From Bacteroidota bacterium (lineage in GTDB: Bacteria; Bacteroidota; Bacteroidia; Bacteroidales; WCHB1-69), in assembly GCA_023413895.1 (NCBI GenBank), contig JAEZOU010000003.1:62254-126253 (forward strand): a DNA stretch of 64,000 nt, given 5' to 3'. Below are positions 1-25,923 of this stretch, in pieces. Position 1 is the first letter of the stretch. The number at the start of each line of letters is the position of its first letter. The notes beneath the pieces were generated by a model. That model saw only the letters and a program-made list of their open reading frames with translations, was not told where the DNA came from and did no database searches. A program made the translations under genes and the position numbers.

Positions 1-1
1 C

Positions 2-742
2 AACTATCTTCAATTTCAAAAAAGCCTAATAGAGAATTACTTTGAAAATTCCAAAGTTGATAAAGTAATCAACAATAGAATCGAAATCGAACAAAATGGC
101 GTGGGTATCTATAAAGATGTTGCCAAATCATACAAAAAACTATTCAAAAAGATCAACCTTTCCCCAGTTTTTAGTAACCTACAAGGATATTATAATTACA
201 TAGAAATGCTTGATTCTCTCAATGTAATCCAACAACAATATTTACAAGTGATTGAAAAAAGAAGATCTATTTCCGAATTAAATTACGCTATTCTAAATAA
301 TCAAGAAGCCTGCTGTAAGAAAATTAATAAAATATACAAAAGAGCATTCTCCTCTACCAATTTCACACCTCAATTTAAGACAGCTCAAGATGGAGAAAAA
401 ACATTAGAAGAGTTAGATGATTTCATTACAATTCAGAATTATGTAATTACTGCTCAACAATATAAACAAACTATTACAAAGAATGAAATAGAATTTAAAA
501 CAGCAACACGCAAATTTAGAAATATCAAATCTGCATATTTTAACATTGCAAAGAGTTTCAATACAAATTACGATTTTACCCTTGTCAAAAATGCACAAGA
601 ATATAATCAACAATTGGAAGAGTTCATTCGCTATCAACAACAATTTATTTGGATTCTGAAAACACCTACGGTGAAAGAAATCAACAAAAAATTGCGCAAT
701 ATTACAGATAAAAAGAGTATTACAAATATAATCGGATTATAA
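2..742 (+). CDS. hypothetical protein, 5'-truncated by the window edge (Q/N/K-rich)
   Basis: The reading frame is open from nt 2 with no stop before the listed GTG at 101. The TAA stop at 740-742 directly abuts the next ATG (743). I recognise no motif. Confidence 0.45.
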   Translation, partial: NYLQFQKSLIENYFENSKVDKVINNRIEIEQNGVGIYKDVAKSYKKLFKKINLSPVFSNLQGYYNYIEMLDSLNVIQQQYLQVIEKRRSISELNYAILNNQEACCKKINKIYKRAFSSTNFTPQFKTAQDGEKTLEELDDFITIQNYVITAQQYKQTITKNEIEFKTATRKFRNIKSAYFNIAKSFNTNYDFTLVKNAQEYNQQLEEFIRYQQQFIWILKTPTVKEINKKLRNITDKKSITNIIGL

Positions 743-1744
743 ATGTCAATTAAATTAGGAATCAACGGATTAGGAAGAATTGGAAAACTTGTTTTACGAC
801 TAACACTCGCTCAAAACAATATTGAAGTGGTACACATCAATGATATGATGAATACCGAACTAATGGCACACCTTCTCAAATATGATAGTATTCATGGGAA
901 ACTGAACGCTTCGATAACATTTGATGACAATCATATCATCATTAATGGCAAACCAATTCGTGTGACTAATGCCGCACACCCCTCTGAAATTACATGGGAA
1001 GAAACTGGCACTGAAATTGTTCTTGATTCTAGTGGGCGTTTCAAAACCTATTCAACTTTAGAAGGGCACCTTAATCACGGGGTAAAAAAAGTAGTACTTA
1101 GTTGCCCTCCAGATGACTATTCTATTGAGAGAGTTGTTGTTATGGGTGTAAATCAGAATACGATTCTACCTACAGATCGCATCATATCCAATGCGTCTTG
1201 CACTACTAATTGTGTTGCAATAATGTTAAAAGTTCTACTCAATGAATTTGGAATCGAGAATGCTTTTATGAATACAATCCATCCAACAACCAACAATCAA
1301 AACCTACAAGATGGATACCACTCAGACTACCGCCGCGCACGTTCAGCAATTAACAATATCATTCCAACCACTTCGAGCGCCGTTCGCAGTGTACACCGAA
1401 TTTTCCCTGAACTACAAGATAAATTTAATGGGTTTGCTACACGTATTCCTATATTAGATTGTTCATACGTAGAGGTGTGCGCAATGCTCCAAAAAGAGGT
1501 AACCCGCAACGAAATCATCTCCGCATTTAAAAAATATAGCTCAGATCCTCAAATGTGTAAATTCTTGGAATTTACACAAGATCCTATTGTAAGCAGCGAC
1601 ATCACCGACAACCCCCATTCCGCAATCTTTGACGCTCTTGCAACCCAAATTCTTGGCAACAGATTTATCCAAATTCTTGGTTGGTACGATAACGAATATG
1701 GATATTCATCCCGAACCATTGACCTTATTAATTACATTGCATAA
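743..1744 (+). CDS. gap: glyceraldehyde-3-phosphate dehydrogenase, type I
   Basis: 333 aa. It has the N-terminal NAD fold GINGLGRIGK, AHLLKYDSIHG, the catalytic SNASCTTNC and the C-terminal WYDNEYGYS. Confidence 0.9.
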   Translation: MSIKLGINGLGRIGKLVLRLTLAQNNIEVVHINDMMNTELMAHLLKYDSIHGKLNASITFDDNHIIINGKPIRVTNAAHPSEITWEETGTEIVLDSSGRFKTYSTLEGHLNHGVKKVVLSCPPDDYSIERVVVMGVNQNTILPTDRIISNASCTTNCVAIMLKVLLNEFGIENAFMNTIHPTTNNQNLQDGYHSDYRRARSAINNIIPTTSSAVRSVHRIFPELQDKFNGFATRIPILDCSYVEVCAMLQKEVTRNEIISAFKKYSSDPQMCKFLEFTQDPIVSSDITDNPHSAIFDALATQILGNRFIQILGWYDNEYGYSSRTIDLINYIA

Positions 1745-1746
1745 TA

Positions 1747-4700
1747 ATGGAAGATAAAAATTTCTCAACTCAAAGCGACCATATCATCGAGTCCGATGCG
1801 CTAAAAGCCAACATCGAACAGATGAAAAATATCAAACCTATCATTCCTGAAGAACATCTTTGGCTAATCGCATTCTCCGAAAATCTATGGGGAATCCACA
1901 AAAAAACAGAGGAATTCTTTAAAGAATACAACCACCCCTACTCCAATAGAAATATTATTGTTAACAATATCGTTGATATCACAAATTCCTACTTCAGAAT
2001 TTATAAAGAGTTCTCTGATGAGGACCTAATTAAAACATTCAATATCCTTTTCGATATATTCGAAAAACTTCTACAAGAAAAACTAACTGATGAATTGGGT
2101 AAAAACCTAGTAACCAATTACCTAACGTTCTTGTTCAAAAACTATTCCCTGCTCCAAAATAAAAAGGAATTACTTATCAGAAGTATTGATATTCTGAGTC
2201 AAAATCTCGAACAAAATGAGTTCCGATATATCAGCAATATGGGGCATTTCCGCAAAAACTTAGCTTGCGCAGTTTATAATCCGCTGGTTCAAAAAAAGAT
2301 TATTGCTTTTATGCGCAACCTAAATGAGAAAAACTTGCATTTCTGGGACGAAAGTACACGTATCAACGAATGGTATGACACACATAAAAGCAGATTTTCA
2401 ACTGATTATTCACATGCCATTGATAAATTAGGACGAAAATTCTTTGATTCCCAATATGAGCAACTCAAAAAGGCAGAAACCTGGGAAGATTTAGTTGCTA
2501 TCACTTTTACATTTTCTGACATTATAAACGCTCTCAAAAAAGAGATTGAAACATTTAAAACAATTCCCGAACAATTCTGCTATCTCTTCTACCTTCTTCA
2601 CCTAAAAGGAACTATATACCATCGTGATTATCTGATTATTGAACTAAATAAAGTTATTAAACGATTTAGTACAGAATTAGATGAAGAGCAAGCCATACTT
2701 TCCATGGACGAACTATTTATCCATTTCAAGGATTTTAAAGAATCGCACGTTAACCTCATCTTAGACTCTATCCTCTCTCTAGGAAAAGAGATTATTGCAA
2801 CACATAATAAAAAATTAATCCATCACTTTGAAAATGAGGTTATTAAATTTGGATTTGAATCTCCAGGAATTGCTTATTTGACCAACGATTGGGAACTAAA
2901 AGTAAATCCTGCACACATCAAAAATATTCGTGTATGGCTCGAACTTATTGAATTCGACCCCGAAATGATGAACAAACTACTTTCGGCCTTAATTATCAAC
3001 CTGAGAGTAGGCGGAATCTTTATTTTCGATACTGATTTCTTCCAAAAAGACGTTACAAGACTACTAAACTCCAAAGTATCACCTAAATACAAACAAATCA
3101 AGCAACTTTCTCGCATATTTCCTGTTTTCTTCAATGAAATTGGTGCAGAAGGTAAACTCCGAAATGTTTCCACCCAAATTGATGAATTAGCTCACCGTAA
3201 TGATAAACTAATACATTTTCTCCGAAAACAGATTCATACAGAGGGAAATAACTCCCATATCGATATTACTAAAGAGGTAATTTTATTCTGGAATGACCTT
3301 AAGAAATCCCGATTGGCCAAAATCGTTCCACCTAATGTTTACGAAGAGATCAACCCGCGTGGCGAGTGGACTGTAGGAGTGCATAAAGTGCTAAATCGCC
3401 TATATCGTGCTGGTAATTGCACACTTGAACAACTGCTTGAACTCCCTAAAGAAGAGGTGCAAAAGTTGTCTGAAACAATCGAACACGATTCTCAACTCGA
3501 CGTCAGCCGCGTTTGCCTTATCATCGAACTTTATCAACTTCTCAAAGAGAAATATGTATTTGAAACAAAAGATATTAGTTCTATCATTAGAAGATATAAT
3601 TTCTTTGATAATGAGGAGATTGTAAATTTCGAAAAATATCTCGAGGAAGCAAATTATATTGGCGCCCTAAAGCAGATTTATGGCTTCATGAAGAAACTCA
3701 ACAATATTATTTTTGATGCTAAAGAAAGTCTCGGTTGGGAAAACATATACTACAAACGCCATATCGCTTTCGGAATTCCATCAATGTATGGCAGATACCA
3801 AGAACCTAAATTCGATGCTCTCGGTCTTACATTCCGTCTCGAAACAATGGCTTCTATTTTAATTAATAATATTATTAATCAGGTTAATACTGAATATTTT
3901 ACACTAAATTCTCTCAATCATACTTTTGAAGTAATCCAACTACTTAGAGATGGACTCAGCTTGGACGGAATCTACGACCAAGGGTTTGAGTCTAATATAA
4001 AAATGCTACAATATAGCTTAACATCTAGAAGTTTTACAATCAAACAATATATAAATATTTTCCAATTTATGGAAAATAGTATCAAGGAGATTACTCACAA
4101 ATATTTTATCCGACCTTACGAACGCCTTCTACACACTATTATTCCACTATACGCTACTGAAGAAGAACGCAACGATCCAAAACTTCTTAGCAAACTAATT
4201 GTACAAAAATCTGAAAATTTCTATCGCGAACTCATTTCATCAGCATTTATTGTGCAACCCATTGACAACTTTATCGGAACAATTCTGAATAACCTAAGAA
4301 AACAAATCAATAGCCTTTCTGACTCCGAAATTCAAAGTTTAATGTCGTACGATAGAAATTTGGTTTTCAGTCCTTTATATAAAGAAACCCCCACATTAGA
4401 CAATCAAGTTTTCTTGGGTTCTAAAGCCTACTATCTAAAAAACTTATACCTAAATAAATTCCCCGTACCCCCTGGCTTTGTTATCACAACTGAGGTCTTC
4501 CGCCGAATGAATGCCATTCAAAAAATTCCATCACTTTCAGCAGAAATTGATGCTATTATCAAGGAAAATATTACCGAATTAGAGAAAATTTCTGGATTAG
4601 AGTACGGAAATCCAGAAAAGCCGCTTCTTCTTAGCGTACGCTCTGGTGCCGCTATATCTATGCCTGGCGCTATGAATACATTCCTCAACGTCGGTATGAA

Positions 4701-5877
4701 TGATGAAATTACCGAAAATCTTAGCAAACGCGATAACTTCGCTTGGACATCATGGGACTGCTATCGTCGCTTACTGCAAACCTGGGGGATGTCTTTTGGC
4801 TTGGAAAGAAATGATTTCGACCAAATCATCTTAAATTACAAGAAAAAATATAATGTAAATCAGAAGATCGAGTTCACTCCTGCAATGATGCGTGAAATCG
4901 CTTTTGCATACAAACAACTGCTCATTGATAACAATATTGAATTTGAAAGTGACCCATTCCTACAAATTCGACAAGCAATAATCGCTGTCTTTAACTCTTG
5001 GTTTACCGACCGCGCACAAGTCTATCGCGACCACATGCAAATCGCTAACGAGTGGGGAACCGCTGTCATTGTGCAGAAAATGATCTTCGGAAATATACAT
5101 CGCGAATCGGGATCTGGCGTCCTCTTTACCCACGATCCTCAAGAGAAAGAATCTCGCATCAGCCTTACCGGTGATTTCTCTTTCCTTAGTCAAGGTGAAG
5201 ATATTGTGGCTGGACTTATCAATACCCTACCCATCAGCGAACACCAACGAATCAAATACTACCACAAATCACCATTCTCGCTCGAAAGTGCTTATCCTAA
5301 AATCTATAATAAACTAAAGGAAATTGCTAAAGATATGATTGAAAAACATAGCTTTGGACACCAAGAGATTGAGTTTACTTTTGAAACAGATAAAGCTGAA
5401 GACCTATTCGTACTTCAAACCCGAAATATGACCTTTACCAAACAAGAAAATGTGGAAGTATTTGCTACTTCTGAAGACCAAATGGTGCGAGTAGGAAGCG
5501 GTATAGGAATTGGAAATAAAGTACTTAACGGAGTAATTGTTTTTGACTTGCAAGACGTGGCAACAATGAAACGCCAAACTCCATTCAAAAATGCAGTTCT
5601 CGTTCGCCCCGATACAGTTCCCGACGACATCGAAATTATCTTCGAATGCGAAGGACTACTTACTAGTCGCGGAGGTGCAACTTCTCACGCCGCTGTTACA
5701 GCCGCTACTCTCGGTAAAACTTGCGTCGTAAACTGCGTCGATATGATTGTTTACGAAAAGAATAAAAAATGTATCATCAACGATGTGCAATTCAAACTTT
5801 TCGACGAAATTGCTATTGACGGAACCAATGGTATAATATATAAAGGTAATTATCCTATCAAATTTCAAGAAATCTAA
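1747..5877 (+). CDS. large dikinase-like protein: unrecognised ~880-aa N-terminal region + PPDK/PEP-synthase-type ATP-grasp domain + phosphohistidine swivel domain, with no PEP/pyruvate TIM-barrel
   Basis: 1376 aa. From about residue 890 it carries PPDK N-domain motifs: PVPPGF, LLSVRSGAAISMPGAMNTFLNVG, WGTAVIVQKMIFGN, GSGVLFTHDP and SQGEDIVAG. The motif GGATSHAAV follows (His codon 5686-5688). The ORF ends ~60 aa later. The start lies 2 nt after the gap stop. Confidence 0.75.
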   Translation: MEDKNFSTQSDHIIESDALKANIEQMKNIKPIIPEEHLWLIAFSENLWGIHKKTEEFFKEYNHPYSNRNIIVNNIVDITNSYFRIYKEFSDEDLIKTFNILFDIFEKLLQEKLTDELGKNLVTNYLTFLFKNYSLLQNKKELLIRSIDILSQNLEQNEFRYISNMGHFRKNLACAVYNPLVQKKIIAFMRNLNEKNLHFWDESTRINEWYDTHKSRFSTDYSHAIDKLGRKFFDSQYEQLKKAETWEDLVAITFTFSDIINALKKEIETFKTIPEQFCYLFYLLHLKGTIYHRDYLIIELNKVIKRFSTELDEEQAILSMDELFIHFKDFKESHVNLILDSILSLGKEIIATHNKKLIHHFENEVIKFGFESPGIAYLTNDWELKVNPAHIKNIRVWLELIEFDPEMMNKLLSALIINLRVGGIFIFDTDFFQKDVTRLLNSKVSPKYKQIKQLSRIFPVFFNEIGAEGKLRNVSTQIDELAHRNDKLIHFLRKQIHTEGNNSHIDITKEVILFWNDLKKSRLAKIVPPNVYEEINPRGEWTVGVHKVLNRLYRAGNCTLEQLLELPKEEVQKLSETIEHDSQLDVSRVCLIIELYQLLKEKYVFETKDISSIIRRYNFFDNEEIVNFEKYLEEANYIGALKQIYGFMKKLNNIIFDAKESLGWENIYYKRHIAFGIPSMYGRYQEPKFDALGLTFRLETMASILINNIINQVNTEYFTLNSLNHTFEVIQLLRDGLSLDGIYDQGFESNIKMLQYSLTSRSFTIKQYINIFQFMENSIKEITHKYFIRPYERLLHTIIPLYATEEERNDPKLLSKLIVQKSENFYRELISSAFIVQPIDNFIGTILNNLRKQINSLSDSEIQSLMSYDRNLVFSPLYKETPTLDNQVFLGSKAYYLKNLYLNKFPVPPGFVITTEVFRRMNAIQKIPSLSAEIDAIIKENITELEKISGLEYGNPEKPLLLSVRSGAAISMPGAMNTFLNVGMNDEITENLSKRDNFAWTSWDCYRRLLQTWGMSFGLERNDFDQIILNYKKKYNVNQKIEFTPAMMREIAFAYKQLLIDNNIEFESDPFLQIRQAIIAVFNSWFTDRAQVYRDHMQIANEWGTAVIVQKMIFGNIHRESGSGVLFTHDPQEKESRISLTGDFSFLSQGEDIVAGLINTLPISEHQRIKYYHKSPFSLESAYPKIYNKLKEIAKDMIEKHSFGHQEIEFTFETDKAEDLFVLQTRNMTFTKQENVEVFATSEDQMVRVGSGIGIGNKVLNGVIVFDLQDVATMKRQTPFKNAVLVRPDTVPDDIEIIFECEGLLTSRGGATSHAAVTAATLGKTCVVNCVDMIVYEKNKKCIINDVQFKLFDEIAIDGTNGIIYKGNYPIKFQEI

Positions 5878-5893
5878 CTTAATACACATTAAT

Positions 5894-6568
5894 ATGAATG
5901 ATAAATTGTGCAAACTGCTTATCGATAAAGGTGAATTAAAACAAAATATCTTTGCCTCTACTTTAGACGCAATGCAAATGTTTAAAGATGCTGCTAAAGA
6001 ATTTGACGACCACTTTAAAAATGAATATGCAGATGACCACGAAAAAATTAACGTGCACTTTAATAATAAAAATCAATACCTCTTCCAAATGAGATTCGCT
6101 GGCGATGTTCTCATATTCCTAATGCATACTAATATCTTTGAATTCCCTCGCGACCACGAAGTGATGAGAACACCCTACATTCGCCAAGATAAAGAAAGGT
6201 CCTACTGTGGAATGATCTCTATCTTCAATTTCCTCTCTGATTCCTTAAAATACAACCGCATTAATGATATCGGTTATATGATTGGAAGAATTCTTATCAA
6301 CAAAGATCAACATTACTTCGTTGAGGGAAAAAGAGAGCTCGCTCAAATACTAAATAACTTCAGCGAGAACAAATTTTCTCCCGAAATTGCTAGGAAAGTT
6401 TTACACTCCGCAATCGAATATACGATAAATTTTGACCTTTTGCTTCCAAATTATGAACTCACAAAAGAGATTTCTGTCGATAATATCCTCCAAATTGAGG
6501 ATCAAGGCATGACTATCAAAACTGCTAAACGTCTGGGTTTCAGGTTTGAACGAGACAAAAATCAATAA
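5894..6568 (+). CDS. hypothetical protein (last gene of the gap/dikinase-like run)
   Basis: 224-aa ORF starting 16 nt after the previous stop. No recognisable motif. It is followed by an A8T9 palindrome. Confidence 0.55.
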   Translation: MNDKLCKLLIDKGELKQNIFASTLDAMQMFKDAAKEFDDHFKNEYADDHEKINVHFNNKNQYLFQMRFAGDVLIFLMHTNIFEFPRDHEVMRTPYIRQDKERSYCGMISIFNFLSDSLKYNRINDIGYMIGRILINKDQHYFVEGKRELAQILNNFSENKFSPEIARKVLHSAIEYTINFDLLLPNYELTKEISVDNILQIEDQGMTIKTAKRLGFRFERDKNQ

Positions 6569-6614
6569 AAAAAATTTTTTTTCATTTTTTGGCTGCGCGT
6601 ATTCTAAAAACTAT

Positions 6615-6622
6615 TACTTTTG
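6615..6622 (+). promoter_or_regulatory. Bacteroidota -7 promoter box (TAnnTTTG) for tRNA-Glu
   Basis: TACTTTTG lies 21 nt upstream of the mature tRNA 5' end. Confidence 0.5.
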
Positions 6623-6642
6623 CACTCATCAAAAACGGAAAC

Positions 6643-6717
6643 GCCGCGTTCGTCTAGCTGGCCCAGGACGCAAGGTTTTCATCCTTGAAATCAGGGGTTC
6701 GAATCCCCTACGCGGTA
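6643..6717 (+). tRNA. tRNA-Glu (anticodon UUC)
   Basis: Hand-folded cloverleaf. Acceptor stem GCCGCGT/ACGCGGT (1 G-U). D stem GTCT/GGAC. Anticodon stem CAAGG/CCTTG with loop TTTTCAT (anticodon TTC). T arm AGGGG-TTCGAAT-CCCCT. Discriminator A. CCA is not encoded. Confidence 0.9.
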
Positions 6718-6723
6718 CCCCTT

Positions 6724-6752
6724 AAGGCAAAACATTACGTTTTGCCTTTTTT
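6724..6752 (+). terminator. hairpin + T-run after tRNA-Glu
   Basis: AAGGCAAAAC-attac-GTTTTGCCTT followed by a T run. Confidence 0.6.
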
Positions 6753-7051
6753 GTTTTTACCTATGCAGAAAATTTGAGTTTTACTCTCTGACTCCTCTAC
6801 ACGCAAAGACCACATACTTGCTACCAGATTGTCCTCTCAAATTTCAGATATTTACCAAACATATACAACTATCGCATGATTCTATTCCACAAACCATATT
6901 TATTCTTTTATTCACATTCTAAAAACCTCAATTTATATCAGACACCAACAACTTATTGCATCCCATCTTAAAACAAAAAATAGCACTTTCCGTCTAGTCT
7001 TTTATTCTATATTTTTACTAAAAACAAGCCTATTTGTATTATTTTTTTTCG

Positions 7052-7059
7052 TACTTTTG
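7052..7059 (+). promoter_or_regulatory. candidate -7 box upstream of gyrA
   Basis: TACTTTTG lies 68 nt upstream of the gyrA ATG. It overlaps an imperfect hairpin, ACTTTTGTA..TACAAAAAGT. Confidence 0.4.
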
Positions 7060-7126
7060 TAAGATAATACAAAAAGTCTCAAGATATTAAAAATCAACAA
7101 TATAACAATATAAAAAAGGAAAGAAA

Positions 7127-9628
7127 ATGACAGAAGGAGAAAAAATTGTTCGCGTGAACATAGAAGACCAGATGAAAACAGCATATATCGACTACTCTAT
7201 GTCAGTAATCGTTTCTCGCGCCCTCCCCGATGCGAGAGATGGGCTAAAACCCGTACATAGAAGAATCTTATATGCTATGTGGGATACCGGAATCCTCTCC
7301 AACAAACCATACAAGAAATCTGCTAGTACCGTCGGTGAAGTATTAGGTAAATACCACCCACACGGTGATACTGCTGTTTATGATGCATTGGTTCGCTTGG
7401 CTCAAGATTGGACGCTCCGCTACCCATTCGTTGATGGTCAAGGAAACTTTGGCTCCGTCGATGGTGATAGCCCTGCAGCAATGCGTTATACTGAAGCTCG
7501 TATGCGCAAAATCGCAGAAGAGATGCTCGTTGACATCGACAAAGATACTGTGATGTTTGTCAACAACTTCGACGACTCACTCCAAGAACCATCAGTTCTT
7601 CCTTCCAAAATTCCAGCACTCCTCGTCAATGGCTCCTCTGGTATTGCTGTTGGTATGGCAACAAACATGGCTCCACACAACCTAACAGAGGTTTGTAACG
7701 GAGTATGCGCCTATATCGATAATCCTGATATCACAATTCCCGAACTTATGGAGCATATACAAGCTCCAGACTTTCCAACGGGCTGTACCATATATGGTTA
7801 TGAAGGCGTAAGAAATGCTTTCGAAACAGGTAGAGGTAGAGTTGTAATGCGCGGAGATGCTATTATCAATGAAAATAATGGAAAAAATACTATCACTGTT
7901 GTATCTCTCCCCTACTTGGTAAACCCTTCTGAAATGATTAAAAGAACCGTCGAACTGATTCGTGAAGACAAAATCGACGGAATCTCCAATATTGAGAATC
8001 TTTCAAGCAAGAAAAATGGAACTAAAATTGTATATGAACTAAAAAAAGATGCTGTTCCTAACGTAGTTCTCAACAAATTATACCAATACACAGCATTACA
8101 ATCCTCTTTCAGCATTAACAACGTAGCTCTCGTTAACGGACGCCCTATGTCGTTAAATTTGAAAGACTTAATTTCTGAATACGTAAAACATAGACATAAC
8201 GTAATCATTCGTCGTACTGAATTTGAACTCAAAAAAGCGCAAAGTCGCGCTCATATCCTCGAAGGATTCTTAAAAGCACTTGACATTATCGACGAAATTA
8301 TTCACCTTATCCGTGCGAGTGCAACTCCAGCAGATGCAATCACGGGATTGATGGAAAAATGGGATTTCTCCGAAATTCAAGCCCGAGAAATCGTGGATAT
8401 GAGATTGCGCCAATTAACAGCTCTCGAAAAGGATAAACTCCAAAATGAGTTTGATGAGTTGATGAAGAAAATCAAATATTACCAAGATGTTTTAGCAGAT
8501 TACAACTTACAAATGAAAATTGTAAAAGATGAGATTATGGAAGTGCGCGAAAAATATGGTGATGAACGTCGCTCCCGTATAGAATTTTCTGCAACTGACT
8601 TCTGCATCGAAGACACAATCTCCGACGACGAAGTGGTAATTACCATCTCTCACCTTGGCTACATCAAACGTACTCCATTAACCGAATATAAAGTACAAAA
8701 TCGTGGTGGAAAAGGATCTAAAGGATCTTCTTCTCGTGAAGAAGATTTCACAGAACACCTCTATACAGCAACCAATCATAACCACCTTCTCTTCTTCACA
8801 GAAAAAGGTAAGTGCTTCTGGCTTAGAGTATTTGAAATTCCAGAAGGAACCAAAACATCCAAAGGACGCGCTATTCAAAACCTTATCAATATTGAGCAAG
8901 ACGATAAGATTAAAGCCGTTATCAATCTTAAAACATTATCTGACACAGACTATATAAACAACAATTATATCATTCTTTGTACCCAAAAAGGTATCATTAA
9001 GAAAACCTCTTTGGAAGCTTATTCACGCCCACGCCAAAATGGTATCATAGCTATCAACATTCGCGAAAACGACCACCTACTAGAAGCTCACCTTACCAAT
9101 GGCGAAAGCGAGATTATGATGGCTCTTAACTCAGGAAAAGCGGTACGCTTTAATGAAAATACGGTACGTCCAATGGGAAGAAATGCATCTGGAGTTCGCG
9201 GTATTACCTTGGCAGACGAAAACGACTTCGTTGTAGGTATGATTAGCATCAACAACCTGAGAGATAATATTTTAGTTGTTTCTGAAAATGGATACGGAAA
9301 ACGTTCATTACTAGAAGATTACAGAATTACAAATCGTGGTGGAAAAGGTATTAAAACTATCAGTATCAGTGAAAAAACAGGTGGTTTGATTGCACTTAAA
9401 AATGTTACCGACAATGATGACCTTATGATTATCAATCGCTCGGGAATCGCAATTCGCCTACATGTTGACCAGTTACGCGTACTGAGCCGCGCAACACAAG
9501 GCGTTAAATTAATCAATTTAAAAGAGGGAGACATTATTGCAGCCGTTTCTCAAGTTCCACGTTCTGAAGATGAAATGGAAGGTGAAGAAGTTATAGAACA
9601 ACCTTCTGAAAACATTACTAATGAATAA
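7127..9628 (+). CDS. gyrA: DNA gyrase subunit A
   Basis: 833 aa. Contains [13 protein letters not shown], the QRDR sequence [20 protein letters not shown] and the active-site region [11 protein letters not shown]-terminal beta-pinwheel repeats are present. Confidence 0.95.
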
Positions 9629-19576: not shown

Positions 19577-21292
19577 TTATCTTAAATTTGCAAGAAGATC
19601 GTTCTTCAACTCTGGAGTAAAACGAATAATTGACGTTTTATTCTTTAGAATTTCAGCCATTCCCCAATGGATCATCAACTTACAAGAGTGCAAATAAGTA
19701 TTATTCCGATTTGCATCTAACAATAGGAGTGTACACATAATTAAGATAGCAGATGATTCCACTAACTTTCTAGCATTCAAGTCGAAGGAAGTTGGCTTAT
19801 CGGAGAATTGTTCTGCGGTAGCGCACATCTCCGCATAATATTGTTTCATTACAAGCATTTGTTCACGCAGTTCTTGCAATTCAGCAGAGATTGATTTTGA
19901 GAGATAGTTTTCTACTTTTTGCAAGAAGAATCCATTTGTTACACCTCGAATTGCTGCGACCACTTGTAATTGAGAAGTTCCTTCATAGATTGACAAAATA
20001 CGGGCATCACGATACAATCGTTCGCAAGCGTACTCTTTCATATAACCGGAACCACCATGAACTTGAATAGAATCGTAAGCAATTTGATTTGCATACTCAC
20101 TTGAGATTAACTTCAGCAGAGGCGTATAGAAATCTGCACTTTTTTGATTCTCTTTCAATTCAGTTTTCTCCTCAGCAGTTAGCGGACGTTCTTTAGCGAT
20201 AGCTTCCAGAGCCTTATAGTGATCCACGAATCGAGTTGTTTCGTACAATAGTGTACGGATTGCGTCAGTTTTAGCACGCATAAGAGCAAGCAATTCATAA
20301 ACTTGTGGAAAACTTAGGATCGAATTTCCAAATTGTTTTCGTTGTTTAGCGTAGCACAATGCTTCTTGATAAGCAGCTTCGGCCAATCCAACAGATTGAG
20401 CGCCAACGCCGAGACGAGCACCATTCATCAGCGACATCACATATTTTATCAATCCGAATCTTCTATTTCCCACTAATTGAGCGGGGGCATTATCGAATAC
20501 GATTTCTGCGGTTGGAGAACCTTTAATTCCCAATTTATTTTCTATTCTTCTAATTTTTACTGCATTACTTTTTCTATCATAAAGAAAACAAGAGAGGCCA
20601 CGTGCATCATCTGTTCCCTCTTCAGAGCGTGCCAAAACCAATTTTATATCGGCATCACCATTGGTTATAAAACGTTTAACACCATTCAATCGCCAGCAAT
20701 TGGCTTCTTCATCGAACGTTGCCTTTAGGCGTACGGATTGCAAATCAGAACCTGCATCTGGTTCTGTAAGATCCATTGAGCAAGTAGCACCGGCGTGGAT
20801 TCTAGGTAAGAATTGTTCTTTTTGTTCTTCAGAGCCAAATTCACAGATTGTTGAAGCGCAATCTTGCAATCCCCAAATATTGGCAAAACTAGCATCGGCA
20901 CGAGAAATAATCTCGGCTGCCATTACATAAGGAAGATACGGGAAATTCAACCCGTTATACTTACGAGGTAGCGCCATACCATAGAGTCCAGCATCGCGCA
21001 ACGCATTATGATTTTGCGAAGTTCCTGAAGCATAAAGAATTTCATTATTCACCACCTTTGGACCTTCAGCATCAACGCCTTCTGCATTTGGAGCTATCAA
21101 ATCTGCGGCGATCTCACCTACAATTTCCAAAACTAACTTATAGTTTTCCATTGCTTCTTCATAACTTGCAGGAGCTTCTACATAAGATTTAGCATCCAAA
21201 AAATTTCGTTCCTTCAAATTTACGATTCGTTCCATATCATCATTTTGAAGATGGAACAATAGATTTTTATTATCTGAGAAAAAATTAGCCAT
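19577..21292 (-). CDS. acyl-CoA dehydrogenase (long, ~570-aa form)
   Basis: 571 aa. ACAD motifs are present (CSMDLTEPDAGSD, RFITNGD, QVHGGSGYMKEYACERLYRDARILSIYEGTSQ). It lies directly downstream of etfA. Confidence 0.85.
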   Translation of the reverse strand: MANFFSDNKNLLFHLQNDDMERIVNLKERNFLDAKSYVEAPASYEEAMENYKLVLEIVGEIAADLIAPNAEGVDAEGPKVVNNEILYASGTSQNHNALRDAGLYGMALPRKYNGLNFPYLPYVMAAEIISRADASFANIWGLQDCASTICEFGSEEQKEQFLPRIHAGATCSMDLTEPDAGSDLQSVRLKATFDEEANCWRLNGVKRFITNGDADIKLVLARSEEGTDDARGLSCFLYDRKSNAVKIRRIENKLGIKGSPTAEIVFDNAPAQLVGNRRFGLIKYVMSLMNGARLGVGAQSVGLAEAAYQEALCYAKQRKQFGNSILSFPQVYELLALMRAKTDAIRTLLYETTRFVDHYKALEAIAKERPLTAEEKTELKENQKSADFYTPLLKLISSEYANQIAYDSIQVHGGSGYMKEYACERLYRDARILSIYEGTSQLQVVAAIRGVTNGFFLQKVENYLSKSISAELQELREQMLVMKQYYAEMCATAEQFSDKPTSFDLNARKLVESSAILIMCTLLLLDANRNNTYLHSCKLMIHWGMAEILKNKTSIIRFTPELKNDLLANLR

Positions 21293-21307
21293 ATCAATAA
21301 ATTTAAA

Positions 21308-22330
21308 TTATTTCTGACAAGCAGAATAACACTTTATCAACTTTTCCAACACTGACGTTACATCACCCACAATTACATAATCAGCCATTGTATTAATGGG
21401 TGCTAATGGATCGGTATTGATAGAGATAATTTTGGCTGATTCAGCCATTCCTGCGCAATGTTGCACAGCACCTGAGATACCGCATGCCACATACAACTTC
21501 GGGCGTACTGTCACCCCCGTTTGGCCGATTTGGCGTTGTGGTTCGGTAAAGCCTGCATCAACGGCAGCACGCGTTGCACCCACCTCACCGCCAATCAATG
21601 AAGCATATTTGTGCAACAACGAGAAATTCTCTTTTGAACCAACTCCATAGCCACCGGCAACAATAATTTGTGCATTCTTAATATTGATGGAGTGAGCTTC
21701 TACCTCTCGGGTTATAATTTCCACAGCAAGATCTTCATCATTCAGAAATAATTGAGGGTTAATTTTTTCCACAACACCTTTATATTCTGTGTTATAAACC
21801 TCTTTTTTCATTACACCTTCTCGTACGGTTGCCATTTGTGGGCGTGTTTCAGGATTCACAATAGTAGCAACAATATTTCCACCGAAAGCAGGACGAATTT
21901 GGTATAAAAGTTGAGAATATTCTTTCCCTTTTTTAGCATCCGTATAACTTCCCACCTCCAAATTTGTACAATCAGCAGTCAATCCGCAGGAGAGACGTGA
22001 GGCCACGCGTGGAGCGAGGTCTCGGCCGATATGAGTTGCTCCCAAGAGCAAAATTTGAGGATTATATTGTTTCACGACATTCACTAAAATTGAAAAATGG
22101 GGCAAAGTTCTGTAAGGAAACAGATGATTAGAATTTGCCAAAATCACTCTATCGACGCCATATTGAAACAACTGATTTTCAGCACCATTTAAATCATCAC
22201 AAAGCACTAAAGCATCAACTTGCACCTTTAACTCATCTGCTAATTTTCGAGCTTTTGAACATAACTCCAAGCTCACTTCAGCAAACTCACGATTATCATT
22301 AACTTCGCAATAAACTAAAATATTATTCAT
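21308..22330 (-). CDS. etfA: electron transfer flavoprotein subunit alpha
   Basis: 340 aa with the FAD-binding C-terminal pattern IGQTGVTVRPKLYVACGISGAVQHCAGM. Confidence 0.9.
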   Translation of the reverse strand: MNNILVYCEVNDNREFAEVSLELCSKARKLADELKVQVDALVLCDDLNGAENQLFQYGVDRVILANSNHLFPYRTLPHFSILVNVVKQYNPQILLLGATHIGRDLAPRVASRLSCGLTADCTNLEVGSYTDAKKGKEYSQLLYQIRPAFGGNIVATIVNPETRPQMATVREGVMKKEVYNTEYKGVVEKINPQLFLNDEDLAVEIITREVEAHSINIKNAQIIVAGGYGVGSKENFSLLHKYASLIGGEVGATRAAVDAGFTEPQRQIGQTGVTVRPKLYVACGISGAVQHCAGMAESAKIISINTDPLAPINTMADYVIVGDVTSVLEKLIKCYSACQK

Positions 22331-22338
22331 AAAACTGA

Positions 22339-23202
22339 TTAACTTAAAATGTGTGTATCCATCAAATCCTTAGTTAACGTCATCAAATCCTCGTCAGAAT
22401 TTGACAACACTTGAGATTCCTTTTGAGCGAGCACCATACTTTCAATATTCTTCACTTTAGTTGGCGAACCTTGCAAACCCAAACGTTGCGGATTTGCGTT
22501 AATATCTTCTGCATTCCACTCTATTATTTGAAGATAATCTTTTGATTTAAAAATAGTTGAAACATTATCGAACTTACCTTCATGAAGTGATGTTGCATAC
22601 TTATATTTCATTACTCTAAGAGCATTTCTAAAACGGCAAGATTTTGCAGAACTTTGCACAGTAATTAGAGCAGGAAGAGTAGTTTTTACCACCTCAATAC
22701 CATTTTCGAGTCTGCGTTTTACAACGATTGCATTTGGAGTAACTTCCAGGGCCTCTTCGGCATAAGTAATTTGAGGGATATTCAGTTTTTCAGCCACTTG
22801 TGGCCCTACTTGTGCGGTATCACCATCAATAGCTTGGCGGCCACACAACACCAAATCTACGGCACCCAACTTTTTGATAGCCATAGATAAGGCATAAGAA
22901 GTTGCCAATGTATCGGAGCCTGCAAAACGGCTATCACTAATAACGGTACCCGAATCGGCACCTCTAAATATTGCTTCACGGACAATTTCAGCTGCGCGAG
23001 GCGGTCCCATTGTCAAGACATGCACTTCAGCATTACAGAGATCTTTGATCGATAGTGCCATTTCGAGCGCATTTAAATCTTCGGGATTAAAAACAGCGGC
23101 GAGTGCACCACGATTTATCGTACCATCGGTACGCATAGCCTCCTTACCCACATTTCGGGTATCGGGCACCTGTTTCGCCAATACTACAATTTTCAAACTC
23201 AT
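22339..23202 (-). CDS. etfB: electron transfer flavoprotein subunit beta
   Basis: The start is taken at the second Met (MSLKIVVLAKQVPD), the typical EtfB N-terminus. The listed start at 23223 adds 7 aa. Confidence 0.85.
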   Translation of the reverse strand: MSLKIVVLAKQVPDTRNVGKEAMRTDGTINRGALAAVFNPEDLNALEMALSIKDLCNAEVHVLTMGPPRAAEIVREAIFRGADSGTVISDSRFAGSDTLATSYALSMAIKKLGAVDLVLCGRQAIDGDTAQVGPQVAEKLNIPQITYAEEALEVTPNAIVVKRRLENGIEVVKTTLPALITVQSSAKSCRFRNALRVMKYKYATSLHEGKFDNVSTIFKSKDYLQIIEWNAEDINANPQRLGLQGSPTKVKNIESMVLAQKESQVLSNSDEDLMTLTKDLMDTHILS

Positions 23203-23266
23203 AATAAAAAATTTTGGCTGCAAAACAAATAAAAAAAGGCGATAACAAATCGGAGGATAACAATAT

Positions 23267-23686: not shown

Positions 23687-24358
23687 ATGAGTAATATTAT
23701 TTCGCCCTCACTTTTATCCGCCGATTTCGGCAATTTATCTTCTGATATTCAAATGCTTAACGACTCAGAAGCTGATTGGTTACACCTTGATATTATGGAC
23801 GGAATTTTCGTTCCTAATATCTCATTTGGCATGCCAATTGTTCGAAAAGTAAGAGAACTTTCAGAAAAGCCGCTTGATGTTCACTTGATGATTATGCAAC
23901 CCGAACGCTATATTGAAGAGTTTAAATGCTGCGGTGCAGACCTTTTGACTATTCATTATGAAGCATGCACACACCTTCACCGAACCATTCATCAGATTAA
24001 AGATATGGATATGTTGGCGGGGGTAGCGCTTAATCCCCACACACCCGTTTCTCTTTTAGAAGACATTATTGATGACGTTGATTTAGTGTTGATTATGTCT
24101 GTAAATCCAGGTTTTGGTGGGCAGAAATTCATTGAACGCACATATCAAAAAGTTAGAGACTTAAAGGAGATGATTGAGCGCAATGGATCTGAAACCTTGA
24201 TTGAAGTTGATGGTGGGGTAAACCTTGACAATGCTCCTTTGTTGCGCGAAGCTGGTGTTGACGCCTTTGTTGCAGGCAATACTGTTTTCAAAGCCGCCAA
24301 TCCTATCGAAACTATTTCATTACTCAAAGACTCTGATAAATCTGAAGAAACAGAATGA
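23687..24358 (+). CDS. rpe: ribulose-phosphate 3-epimerase
   Basis: 223 aa with LHLDIMDGIFVPNISFG, MSVNPGFGGQKF and EVDGGVN. Confidence 0.9.
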   Translation: MSNIISPSLLSADFGNLSSDIQMLNDSEADWLHLDIMDGIFVPNISFGMPIVRKVRELSEKPLDVHLMIMQPERYIEEFKCCGADLLTIHYEACTHLHRTIHQIKDMDMLAGVALNPHTPVSLLEDIIDDVDLVLIMSVNPGFGGQKFIERTYQKVRDLKEMIERNGSETLIEVDGGVNLDNAPLLREAGVDAFVAGNTVFKAANPIETISLLKDSDKSEETE

Positions 24359-25923
24359 AAGCTTGGAAAGTATTCCTCTTTATTGTCTCAGTCATAGGCT
24401 TACTAACTATCATCTCATTGCTTATTCCTGCGGAAGAATGGAAGGTTGGTAAGTTAACCTTAAAATTTCCGAAACCTGAATCGATTTTGGTTCGAGAAGA
24501 GGAAGAATATATTGACCCAGAAGAGATTATAAAAGCTTTAGAATTAGAAGCCCGCATCATAGATTCTACATATAAGAGTTTGGAGGACACAGTAGCGTAC
24601 TATAAGAAAGCGATGGCAATGCCGACCAAATTCTGCTTTCCGAATAACGATTACACCTATTACGACCATTTCTTTGCTGCATTAGAAAGTGCACGTAGTC
24701 AAGGACGCACGATTCGAATTATGCACTACGGAGACTCTCAAATCGAGCTTGACCGCATCTCATCCAATATTCGAGAGTACTTTCAATCACATTTTGGGGG
24801 TGGTGGGCCAGGACTTCTTCCACTTGTTGCCTCAGTTGGCTCGCCCACAATTTATCAATCATACTCAGGGAACAGCACACAATATGCACTTTACGGAGAT
24901 GGTTCGAGAAATTCGGATCGCAACTATGGCGTAATGGCCAAATCTTTTAGAATTTATGGCAATAATAGTTTTTATGTTTCATCTCCGAAAAAAGTAAAAT
25001 CGGTAAGGCAAAAAAGTTACAATAAGATCCAGCTTTTCTGTACACCTCGCAAAGGAAATTTCAAAGCAACTTTAATTAGCAAGGCCCATGGGGTGCGGCT
25101 TGAGCAACAGGCTGATAGCAATGGAACACAACTACTTACATGGAATTTAGACACAGCTATCAGTAATTTTACGCTTCAACTTTCGGGCGAAGCCGACATT
25201 TACGGCATTGCTGTTGACAATGGTTATGGGGTTGCTGTTGACAATATGCCGATGCGTGGAGCCAGCGGGACATTCTTTTCTCAAATGAGTGATTCACTTC
25301 TATCACACTATTTTGAAATAATAGATGTTGGAATGATTATTATGCAATTTGGTGGAAACAGCGTTCCCTCGTTACATAGTGAAAAAAGTGTTGACAAATA
25401 CGTAGAAAGCATTGGAAGACAGATTCGCTTTATGCGAAGAGTACGTCCAGGCGTTCCCATTCTGTTCATTGGGCCATCAGATATGAGCACACGCATTAAT
25501 GGAGTAATGAGCACTTACAAATGGCTTCCGCTTTTGGTCGAAAAACTTAAGGCGACGGTCGTTGAAAATGGCGCTGCATTTTGGGATTTGTACAATGTAA
25601 TGGGCGGTAAAGGCTCTATGATTTCTTGGGTAAAAAAAGGTTGGGCAGGTAAAGACTACATCCACTTTTCAACTCAAGGAGCTCAACAAGTGGGCGAGGT
25701 TCTGACTCAATCATTTCAATCGATGTATGAATTTTATAAACTTCGCAAGACCAATCCTGAGATAGATTTTAATGTGATTTGGTCTAAAATTCCTCAAGTT
25801 CAGCAACAAGATTCGCTCAACAATAGTTCCAAAGATATAATTCATACACAACATTATACAGGGAAAAACAGCAAGAAATCAACTCCACAAATTGTAACTT
25901 CTGACACTAATCAAAAACTATGA
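24355..25923 (+). CDS. SGNH/GDSL-type hydrolase or O-acyltransferase-like protein, N-terminal membrane anchor
   Basis: 522 aa. Block I HYGDSQ, block III FGGNS, block V DYIHFS. ATGA overlap with rpe. Confidence 0.6.
   Translation: MKAWKVFLFIVSVIGLLTIISLLIPAEEWKVGKLTLKFPKPESILVREEEEYIDPEEIIKALELEARIIDSTYKSLEDTVAYYKKAMAMPTKFCFPNNDYTYYDHFFAALESARSQGRTIRIMHYGDSQIELDRISSNIREYFQSHFGGGGPGLLPLVASVGSPTIYQSYSGNSTQYALYGDGSRNSDRNYGVMAKSFRIYGNNSFYVSSPKKVKSVRQKSYNKIQLFCTPRKGNFKATLISKAHGVRLEQQADSNGTQLLTWNLDTAISNFTLQLSGEADIYGIAVDNGYGVAVDNMPMRGASGTFFSQMSDSLLSHYFEIIDVGMIIMQFGGNSVPSLHSEKSVDKYVESIGRQIRFMRRVRPGVPILFIGPSDMSTRINGVMSTYKWLPLLVEKLKATVVENGAAFWDLYNVMGGKGSMISWVKKGWAGKDYIHFSTQGAQQVGEVLTQSFQSMYEFYKLRKTNPEIDFNVIWSKIPQVQQQDSLNNSSKDIIHTQHYTGKNSKKSTPQIVTSDTNQKL

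Follow-up and report, generated by a model that had tools for sequence, protein, structure and literature searches.

A PPDK-derived phosphohistidine protein with a new N-terminal domain is genetically coupled to glyceraldehyde-3-phosphate dehydrogenase in anaerobic bacteria

Introduction

What would a protein do beside a glycolytic gene if it kept the ATP-binding and phosphohistidine domains of pyruvate phosphate dikinase (PPDK), lacked the barrel that binds pyruvate, and carried an unfamiliar domain of 880 aa? The question is raised by a 1376-aa open reading frame (ORF) near the start of a 64,000-nucleotide stretch of DNA from a Bacteroidota bacterium (contig JAEZOU010000003.1, positions 62,254 to 126,253), referred to here as the window. 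An earlier note on the sequence had proposed this ORF as a dikinase-like gene; we found it to be real, with an ATG start, directly behind the glyceraldehyde-3-phosphate dehydrogenase (GAPDH) gene gap. We are highly confident that its product is an uncharacterised, PPDK-derived phosphohistidine enzyme functionally coupled to GAPDH, and we propose, far more tentatively, that it moves phosphate between ATP and the metabolite pair of that enzyme.

Results

The C-terminal third resembles the first half of PPDK

A PPDK-type ATP-grasp domain and a swivel histidine within the motif GGATSHAAV had been recognised from the sequence alone in the last ~490 aa, and Pfam searches bore this out: PPDK_N (PF01326) was matched at residues 890-1159 (E 6.6e-35) and the PEP-utilizers mobile domain (PF00391) at residues 1281-1362 (E 7.7e-16). 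The motif occupies residues 1309-1317, and its catalytic histidine, His1314 (codon CAC), stands 62 aa from the C-terminus. The TIM barrel that binds phosphoenolpyruvate (PEP) and pyruvate is missing, as the earlier note had also said, with no Pfam match to PEP-utilizers_C (PF02896) anywhere in the 1376-aa protein.

Scores against protein family models separated this module from its better-known relatives. The PPDK model TIGR01828 gave 359.5 bits over model positions 13-345, below its whole-protein cutoff of 843.45, and the VadK-type model NF004531 gave 270.6 bits against a cutoff of 456. The PEP synthase (PEPS) models TIGR01418 and NF005057 gave 83.2 and 101.5 bits (below cutoffs of 739.75 and 598), the rifampin phosphotransferase (RPH) model NF041857 gave 43.4 bits (below 999), and the model for Enzyme I of the phosphotransferase system (PTS), TIGR01417, gave 14.4 bits over the His motif only (below 341.7). 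Judged by these sequence scores, the module is far nearer PPDK than PEPS or RPH. The PPDK of C. symbiosum (PDB 1kbl/9pzl) aligned with an E-value of 3e-67 over chain residues 16-349 and 420-510, and the equivalents of PPDK K22, R92, E323, Q335 and R337 were kept at K893, SVRSG (963-967), QEIEFT (1206-1211) and LQTRN (1223-1227). In effect, the protein is PPDK residues 1 to ~515 preceded by a new domain of 880 aa.

The N-terminal domain is all-alpha with an invariant polar core

Residues 1-880 had been described as helical and unrecognisable, and both descriptions stood. No match to this region was observed in Pfam, NCBIfam or PDB sequences, including a profile search and permissive Pfam scans, and no carbohydrate-binding module (CBM) was found in Pfam even at E<=10. 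An AlphaFold2 (AF2) model built on a 60-sequence alignment reached a predicted local distance difference test score (pLDDT) of 83.7 and a predicted TM-score (pTM) of 0.72, and a model of the core at residues 320-885 reached 84.8 and 0.83. The predicted fold consists of ~45 helices and a single beta-hairpin, with strands at residues 664-674 and 677-685 and pLDDT <50 at 669-680. Foldseek, a check that the earlier note had suggested, returned no fold relative in the PDB: searches with the whole domain gave only generic solenoid noise (TM <=0.18), and searches with the core gave no match at E<=1e-3. The fold of the 880-aa domain is well predicted by these models, and the PDB contains nothing detectably related to it. 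We rejected the idea that the N-terminus is a diverged PEP/pyruvate TIM barrel because the model is all-alpha with one hairpin, and the same feature excludes a displaced one. The domain was likewise no match to any characterised domain in these searches, and neither this possibility nor the diverged barrel, both of which would have undone the original reading, was borne out.

Conservation within the domain was striking, and the core carries short motifs, including GGIFIFDTDfFQKD (422-435), IGAEG (465-469), LIHFLRKQIHTEGNN (488-502) and QYINIFQFM (767-775). Motifs such as GGIFIFDTDLFQKD, IGAEGxLR, LIHFLRKQIHTEGNN and QYINIFQFM were common to Bacteroidota and Clostridia. Seventeen polar residues remained invariant down to 25% identity (H390, D428, Q433, R472, D479, R493, K494, H497, K602, Y603, K670, H672, S679, Y684, E686, R827 and D840). 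The hairpin motif YYKRHIAFGIPSMYG was also invariant, with K670, H672, S679, G682, Y684 and E686 unchanged over the same range. This pattern, made up of basic residues, histidines and a few acidic residues, suggests a catalytic or ligand-binding site whose partner would be anionic and phosphorylated.

The protein belongs to a large family of constant architecture

The protein had been called an orphan, which is wrong because a homologue search using residues 1-880 alone returned 1,837 homologues at E<=1e-3, and relatives were present in at least 385 GTDB species representatives. Essentially all matches listed were 1,355-1,376 aa long, carried the same two C-terminal Pfam domains and were 42-97% identical over the N-terminal domain. 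An exhaustive profile search of 1.84 billion cluster representatives returned 619 at E<=1e-3 and 225 at E<=1e-30, with full-length members of 1,335-1,540 aa. All of the full-length relatives tested kept PPDK_N and PEP-utilizers, and two added a hemerythrin domain. These two distant members (P0178, at L088 1166-5788, and P0171) are 1,455-1,540 aa long with the hemerythrin domain (PF01814) at the N-terminus, which suggests that in some lineages O2, iron or NO acts as an input. The short contig that encodes P0178, L088, showed no GAPDH gene. Split or alternative architectures of the N-terminal domain were considered and rejected, the short representative that we checked (P0137) ending at a contig edge.

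Source annotations name family members "PEP/pyruvate-binding domain-containing protein", "pyruvate phosphate dikinase" or "ppdk2", and the last two names could be taken to mean that the gene is a decayed or mis-assembled PPDK, truncated, fused to junk and without function. Across several phyla, the more than 1,800 homologues stay at 1,355-1,376 aa and keep 42-60% identity along the entire N-terminal domain; together with intact catalytic motifs and confident AF2 models, this stands against such a history. The conservation effectively refutes it, and we regard its probability as negligible.

We examined the best 80 of the at least 385 species-representative loci for distribution and neighbouring genes. 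All 80 came from metagenome-assembled genomes (MAGs) from rumen, gut, digester, landfill, groundwater and sediment, and their taxa included Bacteroidales, Lentimicrobiaceae, Prolixibacteraceae, Ignavibacteria, Cloacimonadota, Aminicenantes and several families of Clostridia. An uncultured Bacteroidales MAG (L008) matched the window itself at ~97-98% identity. Among cultured organisms, carriers include Anoxybacterium hadale, Petroclostridium sp. X23 and Sinanaerobacter chloroacetimidivorans. Full-text literature searches found neither a description of the family nor a phosphoglycerate dikinase.

A role in defence or on a mobile element was also considered. The N-terminal domain had no match in plasmid and phage collections, and PADLOC returned no match for the dikinase-like protein or for the 224-aa and 634-aa ORFs that flank the gap-dikinase pair in the window; with all of these searches empty the idea was rejected.

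GAPDH is the only conserved neighbour

A GAPDH gene was a neighbour in 72 of the 80 loci, with the next commonest gene cluster present in nine, and GAPDH is the sole conserved neighbour of the dikinase-like gene. Two types were observed. The upstream type, a type-I gap of 332-333 aa, lay immediately 5' on the same strand in 42 loci and was divergent in seven more. The downstream type, a GAPDH-like gene of 415-417 aa, lay 20-270 nt 3' in 51 loci, and this paralogue of ~417 aa is the commonest partner. Both types were found at 28 loci and neither at four loci with both flanks available. The 417-aa paralogue was absent from the 64-kb window, which carries the upstream gap only.

The association was also examined in reverse by searching metagenome contigs with motifs specific to the 417-aa paralogue. 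Among 69 loci with enough upstream DNA, the dikinase-like gene lay 23-297 nt upstream in 59, within 5 kb in two, and was lacking in eight. These eight (L105, L106, L108, L119, L146, L147, L156, L162) were mostly from cattle or rumen-type metagenome records, with GAPDHs ~70% identical, and the paralogue may have moved in them. Rumen Bacteroidales loci such as L022-L026 carried the dikinase-like gene with the upstream gap only, and the pair appears to have split in rumen lineages. In A. hadale (CP042469.1) and Petroclostridium sp. X23 (CP124862.1), both with complete genomes, the dikinase-like gene and the GAPDH gene stood as an isolated pair, 21-30 nt apart.

The linkage extended to distant relatives, being kept in L089 and L093 at only 25-35% identity. 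One distant member of 1,480 aa had a 381-aa GAPDH-like gene 60 nt downstream, and another of 1,425 aa had a 453-aa GAPDH-like gene ~1 kb downstream. Pairwise identities of the dikinase-like protein and the 417-aa GAPDH were correlated at r=0.94 over 820 pairs, a value not corrected for kinship; for the upstream gap r was 0.74. The genetic coupling to GAPDH looks obligate.

In L089-L091 (1-12680), the 1,425-aa relative lies directly after lptB-rpoN-hpf-ptsN(EIIA-Ntr)-rapZ-EIIA-man-GNAT, and the 453-aa GAPDH-like gene and a CBS protein lie 3' of it. No gene for HPr or Enzyme I was found in this locus; in some bacteria those genes hold the position taken here by the 1,425-aa relative. The context may link the family to the nitrogen-PTS.

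The two genes may also have travelled together. Some Bacteroidota and Lentimicrobium MAGs (L063, L068, L070, L077 and L084, compared with L056, L060 and L061) carried a "Clostridia-type" pair, with the dikinase-like protein 47-48% and the GAPDH 56-59% identical to the references, which suggests either inter-phylum transfer of both genes as a unit or mis-binning. The assignment of two MAGs to "Alphaproteobacteria/Caulobacteraceae" (L055, L065) looks suspicious on the same grounds.

The partner GAPDHs keep both phosphate sites, and the downstream type lacks the NAD-specificity Asp

The window gap scored 370.3 bits on TIGR01534, above the cutoff of 367.2, and contained both Gp_dh_N and Gp_dh_C. 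Its catalytic Cys (in SCTT), its His (in TIH) and the equivalents of the phosphate-site residues R197, R200 and R234 were all present. All partner GAPDHs kept the SCTT cysteine, the TVH histidine, the phosphate-site arginines and the STGAAK motif of the inorganic phosphate (Pi) site. With catalytic and phosphate-site residues kept, the partner GAPDHs should handle glyceraldehyde 3-phosphate (GAP) and substrates of the 1,3-bisphosphoglycerate (1,3-BPG) type.

The downstream type differs by five insertions and by the Asp that sets NAD specificity (D34 in the window gap), which is replaced by V/T/A followed by G-R-E/S in every clade examined. Loss of this Asp is an established determinant of NADP use in GAPDH, and was reportedly tied to NADP use in mutants of the B. 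stearothermophilus enzyme and in B. subtilis GapB. The downstream paralogue is therefore possibly NADP(H)-linked and gluconeogenic, a preference that we read from its sequence.

Genes of the window and the transcription unit

The features of the locus are collected in Table 1. Four plus-strand ORFs follow one another with spacings of 0, 2 and 16 nt, as first reported, namely an ORF cut by the window start, gap, the dikinase-like gene and the 224-aa ORF. Only one terminator-like site was found in positions 1..7300, 3' of tRNA-Glu(UUC), so the four-ORF run is plausibly a single transcription unit. The hairpin after the tRNA is likely the 3' end of that unit, and the 224-aa ORF is probably co-transcribed with the dikinase-like gene in the window.

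Table 1. Features of the gap-dikinase locus, in window coordinates.
Feature	Position	Strand	Description
gap	743..1744	+	333-aa type-I glyceraldehyde-3-phosphate dehydrogenase; stop codon 2 nt ahead of the dikinase-like gene
Dikinase-like gene	1747..5877	+	1376 aa, ATG start; novel N-terminal domain, PPDK-type ATP-grasp and phosphohistidine swivel
N-terminal domain	1747..4386	+	residues 1-880; all-alpha by prediction; candidate acceptor- or partner-binding module
Conserved core of the N-terminal domain	2704..4401	+	residues 320-885; carries the conserved motifs and has its own AF2 model
Sole beta-hairpin of the N-terminal domain	3736..3801	+	residues 664-685; carries YYKRHIAFGIPSMYG; predicted flexible
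PPDK-type ATP-grasp nucleotide-binding domain	4399..5466	+	residues ~885-1240; TIGR01828, PDB 1kbl/9pzl
Phosphohistidine swivel domain	5581..5853	+	residues ~1279-1369; PF00391; His1314 codon at 5686-5688
224-aa ORF	5894..6568	+	no family match; outside the conserved unit
tRNA-Glu(UUC)	6643-6719	+	between the 224-aa ORF and gyrA (7127-9628)
Terminator-like hairpin	6724-6748, with T-tract (tRNA and hairpin together 6643-6758)	+	10-bp stem, directly 3' of tRNA-Glu

The four-gene functional unit proposed from these spacings held only in part. The link to gap was strongly conserved, and the other outcome named in the earlier note as undoing its reading, an arrangement shared with no relative, did not arise; but the outer two genes accompanied the dikinase-like gene only in the window's own species. 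The first gene, described as a truncated hypothetical, does lie at the window edge (1-742, +), but the gene itself is not truncated: the ORF is the C-terminal third of a 634-aa gene (complete at L005 7092-8996) cut by the window start. Its product is Q/N/K-rich and had no match in Pfam, NCBIfam or PADLOC, and among the 80 related loci it stood beside the dikinase-like gene in that one species only. Its TAA directly abuts the ATG of gap in the same frame; read-through from the one to the other, with only this stop codon between them, was considered and dropped, the 634-aa gene being lineage-specific.

The 224-aa ORF had no family match in Pfam, NCBIfam or PADLOC. It is not a TIM barrel, and the earlier statement that it does not supply the missing one stood. 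It belongs to a family of 952 Bacteroidales homologues of ~225 aa (62-99% identity among the matches listed) with no Pfam domain, and it adjoins the dikinase-like gene only in the window's own species (L005, L008). A role as missing domain or conserved partner was rejected on these grounds, and the family is uncharacterised, well conserved in its own right and unrelated to the dikinase module.

Three other regions of the window were observed. An acyl-CoA dehydrogenase with a C-terminal extension is encoded with EtfA and EtfB at 19577-23223 (-), a butyryl-CoA-dehydrogenase/Etf-type cluster of the kind characteristic of fermentative anaerobes, in keeping with a family whose carriers all live anaerobically. 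At 29649-31520 (-) a 623-aa fusion joins flavin reductase-like, rubredoxin-like, ODP/metallo-beta-lactamase (flavodiiron-type) and flavodoxin domains, and the product is probably a flavodiiron protein that detoxifies O2/NO and brings its own modules for electron input. A 522-aa ORF without a Pfam match (24355-25923, +) shares 4 nt with the ribulose-phosphate 3-epimerase gene (23687-24358), and next come a GDSL-type acylhydrolase and an MBOAT O-acyltransferase; this region may be a surface-polymer acylation cluster.

Discussion

A proposed dikinase bypass of phosphoglycerate kinase

Our preferred reading is that the protein is a new dikinase that moves phosphate between ATP and the GAPDH metabolite pair 3-phosphoglycerate (3-PG) and 1,3-BPG by way of a site in the N-terminal domain, and we give it a probability of roughly 0.37. 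In PPDK fashion, the ATP-grasp domain would charge His1314 with the beta-phosphate of ATP, with ATP either pyrophosphorylating or phosphorylating the histidine. From there the swivel domain would carry the phosphate to a site in the all-alpha N-terminal domain, in place of the pyruvate-binding TIM barrel that the protein lacks, and this site would be built from the invariant cluster H390, D428, R472, R493, K494, H497, K670, H672 and R827. The dikinase and GAPDH would act as a two-gene module, with a reversible transfer of the form 3-PG + ATP (+Pi) <-> 1,3-BPG + AMP (+PPi or Pi), where PPi is pyrophosphate. Such a reaction would be a dikinase bypass of phosphoglycerate kinase (PGK), and the adjacent GAPDH would either produce or use up its labile acyl phosphate; in the ancestral module this GAPDH would be the paralogue without the NAD-specificity Asp. 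Run in the anabolic direction, the module would add drive to gluconeogenesis, much as PEPS or PPDK does at pyruvate, and would supply a GAPDH that is possibly NADPH-linked; run in the catabolic direction, it would make ATP from AMP and PPi.

The free energies of hydrolysis are about -49 kJ/mol for 1,3-BPG, -62 for PEP and -46 for ATP to AMP and PPi, and from these textbook values a PPDK-style reaction with 1,3-BPG would lie near equilibrium. Gene pairs of a kinase and an acyl-phosphate reductase that share a labile intermediate are familiar, as in AK/ASADH, ProB/ProA and ArgB/ArgC. The specific 3-PG/1,3-BPG reaction, taken by itself, is tentative at about the same level as the reading as a whole. 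A fuller version is somewhat doubtful, namely that the protein is an AMP-forming (possibly Pi- or PPi-dependent) 3-PG/1,3-BPG dikinase of new fold, in a complex with a dedicated and probably NADP(H)-linked GAPDH, serving as a PGK bypass in hundreds of anaerobic species from Bacteroidota, Cloacimonadota, Ignavibacteria and Clostridia.

Several points weigh against the proposal. We infer the acceptor, and likewise the reaction, the direction in which it runs and any physical complex. A bypass has no obvious purpose given that PGK is near-universal and itself works in both directions, and a domain of 880 aa is large for binding a three-carbon acid. The mirror-tree correlation of r=0.94 is uncorrected for species phylogeny. 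GAPDH was not nearby in L044, L074, L082 and L087 or in the P0249 and P0178 clades, and distant clades with a hemerythrin domain or a place in the rpoN-ptsN-rapZ-EIIA cluster hint at regulation.

Comparison with known dikinases and kinase-dehydrogenase pairs

With PPDK (EC 2.7.9.1; TIGR01828; PDB 1KBL/1DIK) the window protein shares homologous ATP-grasp and swivel domains in the same order, with GG-x-TSH and the nucleotide and Mg residues kept. It differs in having no C-terminal PEP/pyruvate TIM barrel, in an unrelated all-alpha N-terminal domain of 880 aa, and in the GAPDH that is its family's conserved neighbour. VadK (Rv1127c-type, NF004531) is likewise PPDK-derived, has lost the PEP/pyruvate domain and is encoded beside functionally tied enzymes of central metabolism. 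VadK, however, is a two-domain protein of ~490 aa from actinobacteria, found with methylcitrate-cycle genes, whereas the family of the window protein has its conserved 880-aa domain in addition, is tied genetically to GAPDH and comes from anaerobes among the Bacteroidota, Clostridia and related groups.

The earlier note had likened the protein to RPH and to glucan water dikinases (GWD/PWD), and the shared logic of an ATP-grasp domain and a swivel His without a PEP/pyruvate domain, together with an unrecognisable N-terminal module, supports the comparison. RPH (PDB 5FBS/5HV1) also joins ATP-grasp and a C-terminal His domain to a lineage-specific substrate domain of otherwise unknown fold, but its order is ATP-grasp, rifampin-binding, His, while the window protein has its extra domain, twice the size, at the N-terminus. 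The matches to RPH chains in the PDB were weak and confined to part of the ATP-grasp domain, and none fell in the N-terminal domain by sequence or among the Foldseek matches listed. GWD/PWD are dikinases that exceed 1,300 aa and place a long acceptor-binding region N-terminal to the catalytic modules (PMC13553574), but GWD has N-terminal CBM45/CBM20 modules, of which CBM45 binds starch, and a His domain ahead of the nucleotide-binding domain, whereas the window protein has no CBM and places ATP-grasp before His. The likeness to PGK with GAPDH and to AK/ASADH, ProB/ProA and ArgB/ArgC is a functional analogy only, each pairing the gene of a phosphotransferase with that of a GAPDH-type or semialdehyde dehydrogenase acting on an acyl phosphate. 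PGK and the AK, ProB and ArgB kinases are not homologous to the window protein, and transfer the gamma-phosphate directly with release of ADP; the window protein has dikinase machinery, a phosphohistidine intermediate and AMP as the expected product. The logic is that of the dikinase superfamily, but the acceptor module, the domain order and the conserved partner are new.

Regulatory kinase or dikinase for another acceptor

VadK of M. tuberculosis, a PPDK minus its PEP/pyruvate domain, phosphorylates itself on His and has the products of the adjacent methylcitrate-cycle genes as interaction partners (10.1101/2025.10.30.685616). On this precedent, and with 270.6 bits on the truncated-type model NF004531, the window protein could be a regulatory phosphohistidine kinase that autophosphorylates from ATP and whose helical N-terminal domain binds the neighbouring GAPDH, phosphorylating it or tuning it allosterically. 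It would then couple energy charge, and O2 or redox state in the hemerythrin-fused forms, to flux at the triose-phosphate node. The hemerythrin sensor fusions in P0178 and P0171 and the placement of a distant clade after rpoN-hpf-ptsN-rapZ-EIIA-man would suit such a role, as would an all-alpha, solenoid-like fold of a kind typical of protein-binding scaffolds, which made up all of the Foldseek noise matches. We regard this regulatory reading as the main rival, but still as unlikely. The many invariant charged and His residues fall in short motifs shared from Bacteroidota to Clostridia and look more like a catalytic site than an interface, the ancestral partner is a dedicated GAPDH paralogue and not a housekeeping enzyme, no phospho-acceptor residue can be named, and VadK itself requires no additional domain.

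The protein could also be a dikinase for some other acceptor. The enzyme might phosphorylate a hydroxyl group of glyceraldehyde, dihydroxyacetone, glycerate or another metabolite or polymer, the product entering metabolism via GAPDH. The characterised non-pyruvate dikinases, RPH, GWD/PWD and TalE, set this pattern, all phosphorylating OH or NH groups irreversibly (PMC4844700, PMC13553574, PMC6482885), and the authors of the RPH work point out that enzymes of this sort form a large group still unexplored. Next to the P0146 clade there is also a DhaM-type EIIA-man gene. Yet no transporter, hydrolase or pathway gene was conserved with the pair in the 80 loci, the partner keeps both GAPDH phosphate sites, which points to GAP and 1,3-BPG themselves, and the ATP-grasp/His module is PPDK-like and not RPH- or PEPS-like. 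This explanation seems to us improbable, and transfer between ATP and the 3-PG/1,3-BPG pair is the one that we prefer.

Significance

Lower glycolysis and gluconeogenesis are regarded as fully mapped, and GAPDH-PGK is treated as universal. At least 385 species of anaerobes from gut, rumen, digester and sediment carry the two-gene module described here, which may represent either a new 3-PG/1,3-BPG reaction or a new form of GAPDH regulation. Current annotations of the family are misleading and will introduce a false PPDK reaction into genome-scale models. Cultured hosts exist, which makes the question directly testable. Should the 3-PG/1,3-BPG reaction prove true, it would be a new reaction of central metabolism, with consequences for the bookkeeping of ATP and PPi and for metabolic models of the communities in which these anaerobes live.

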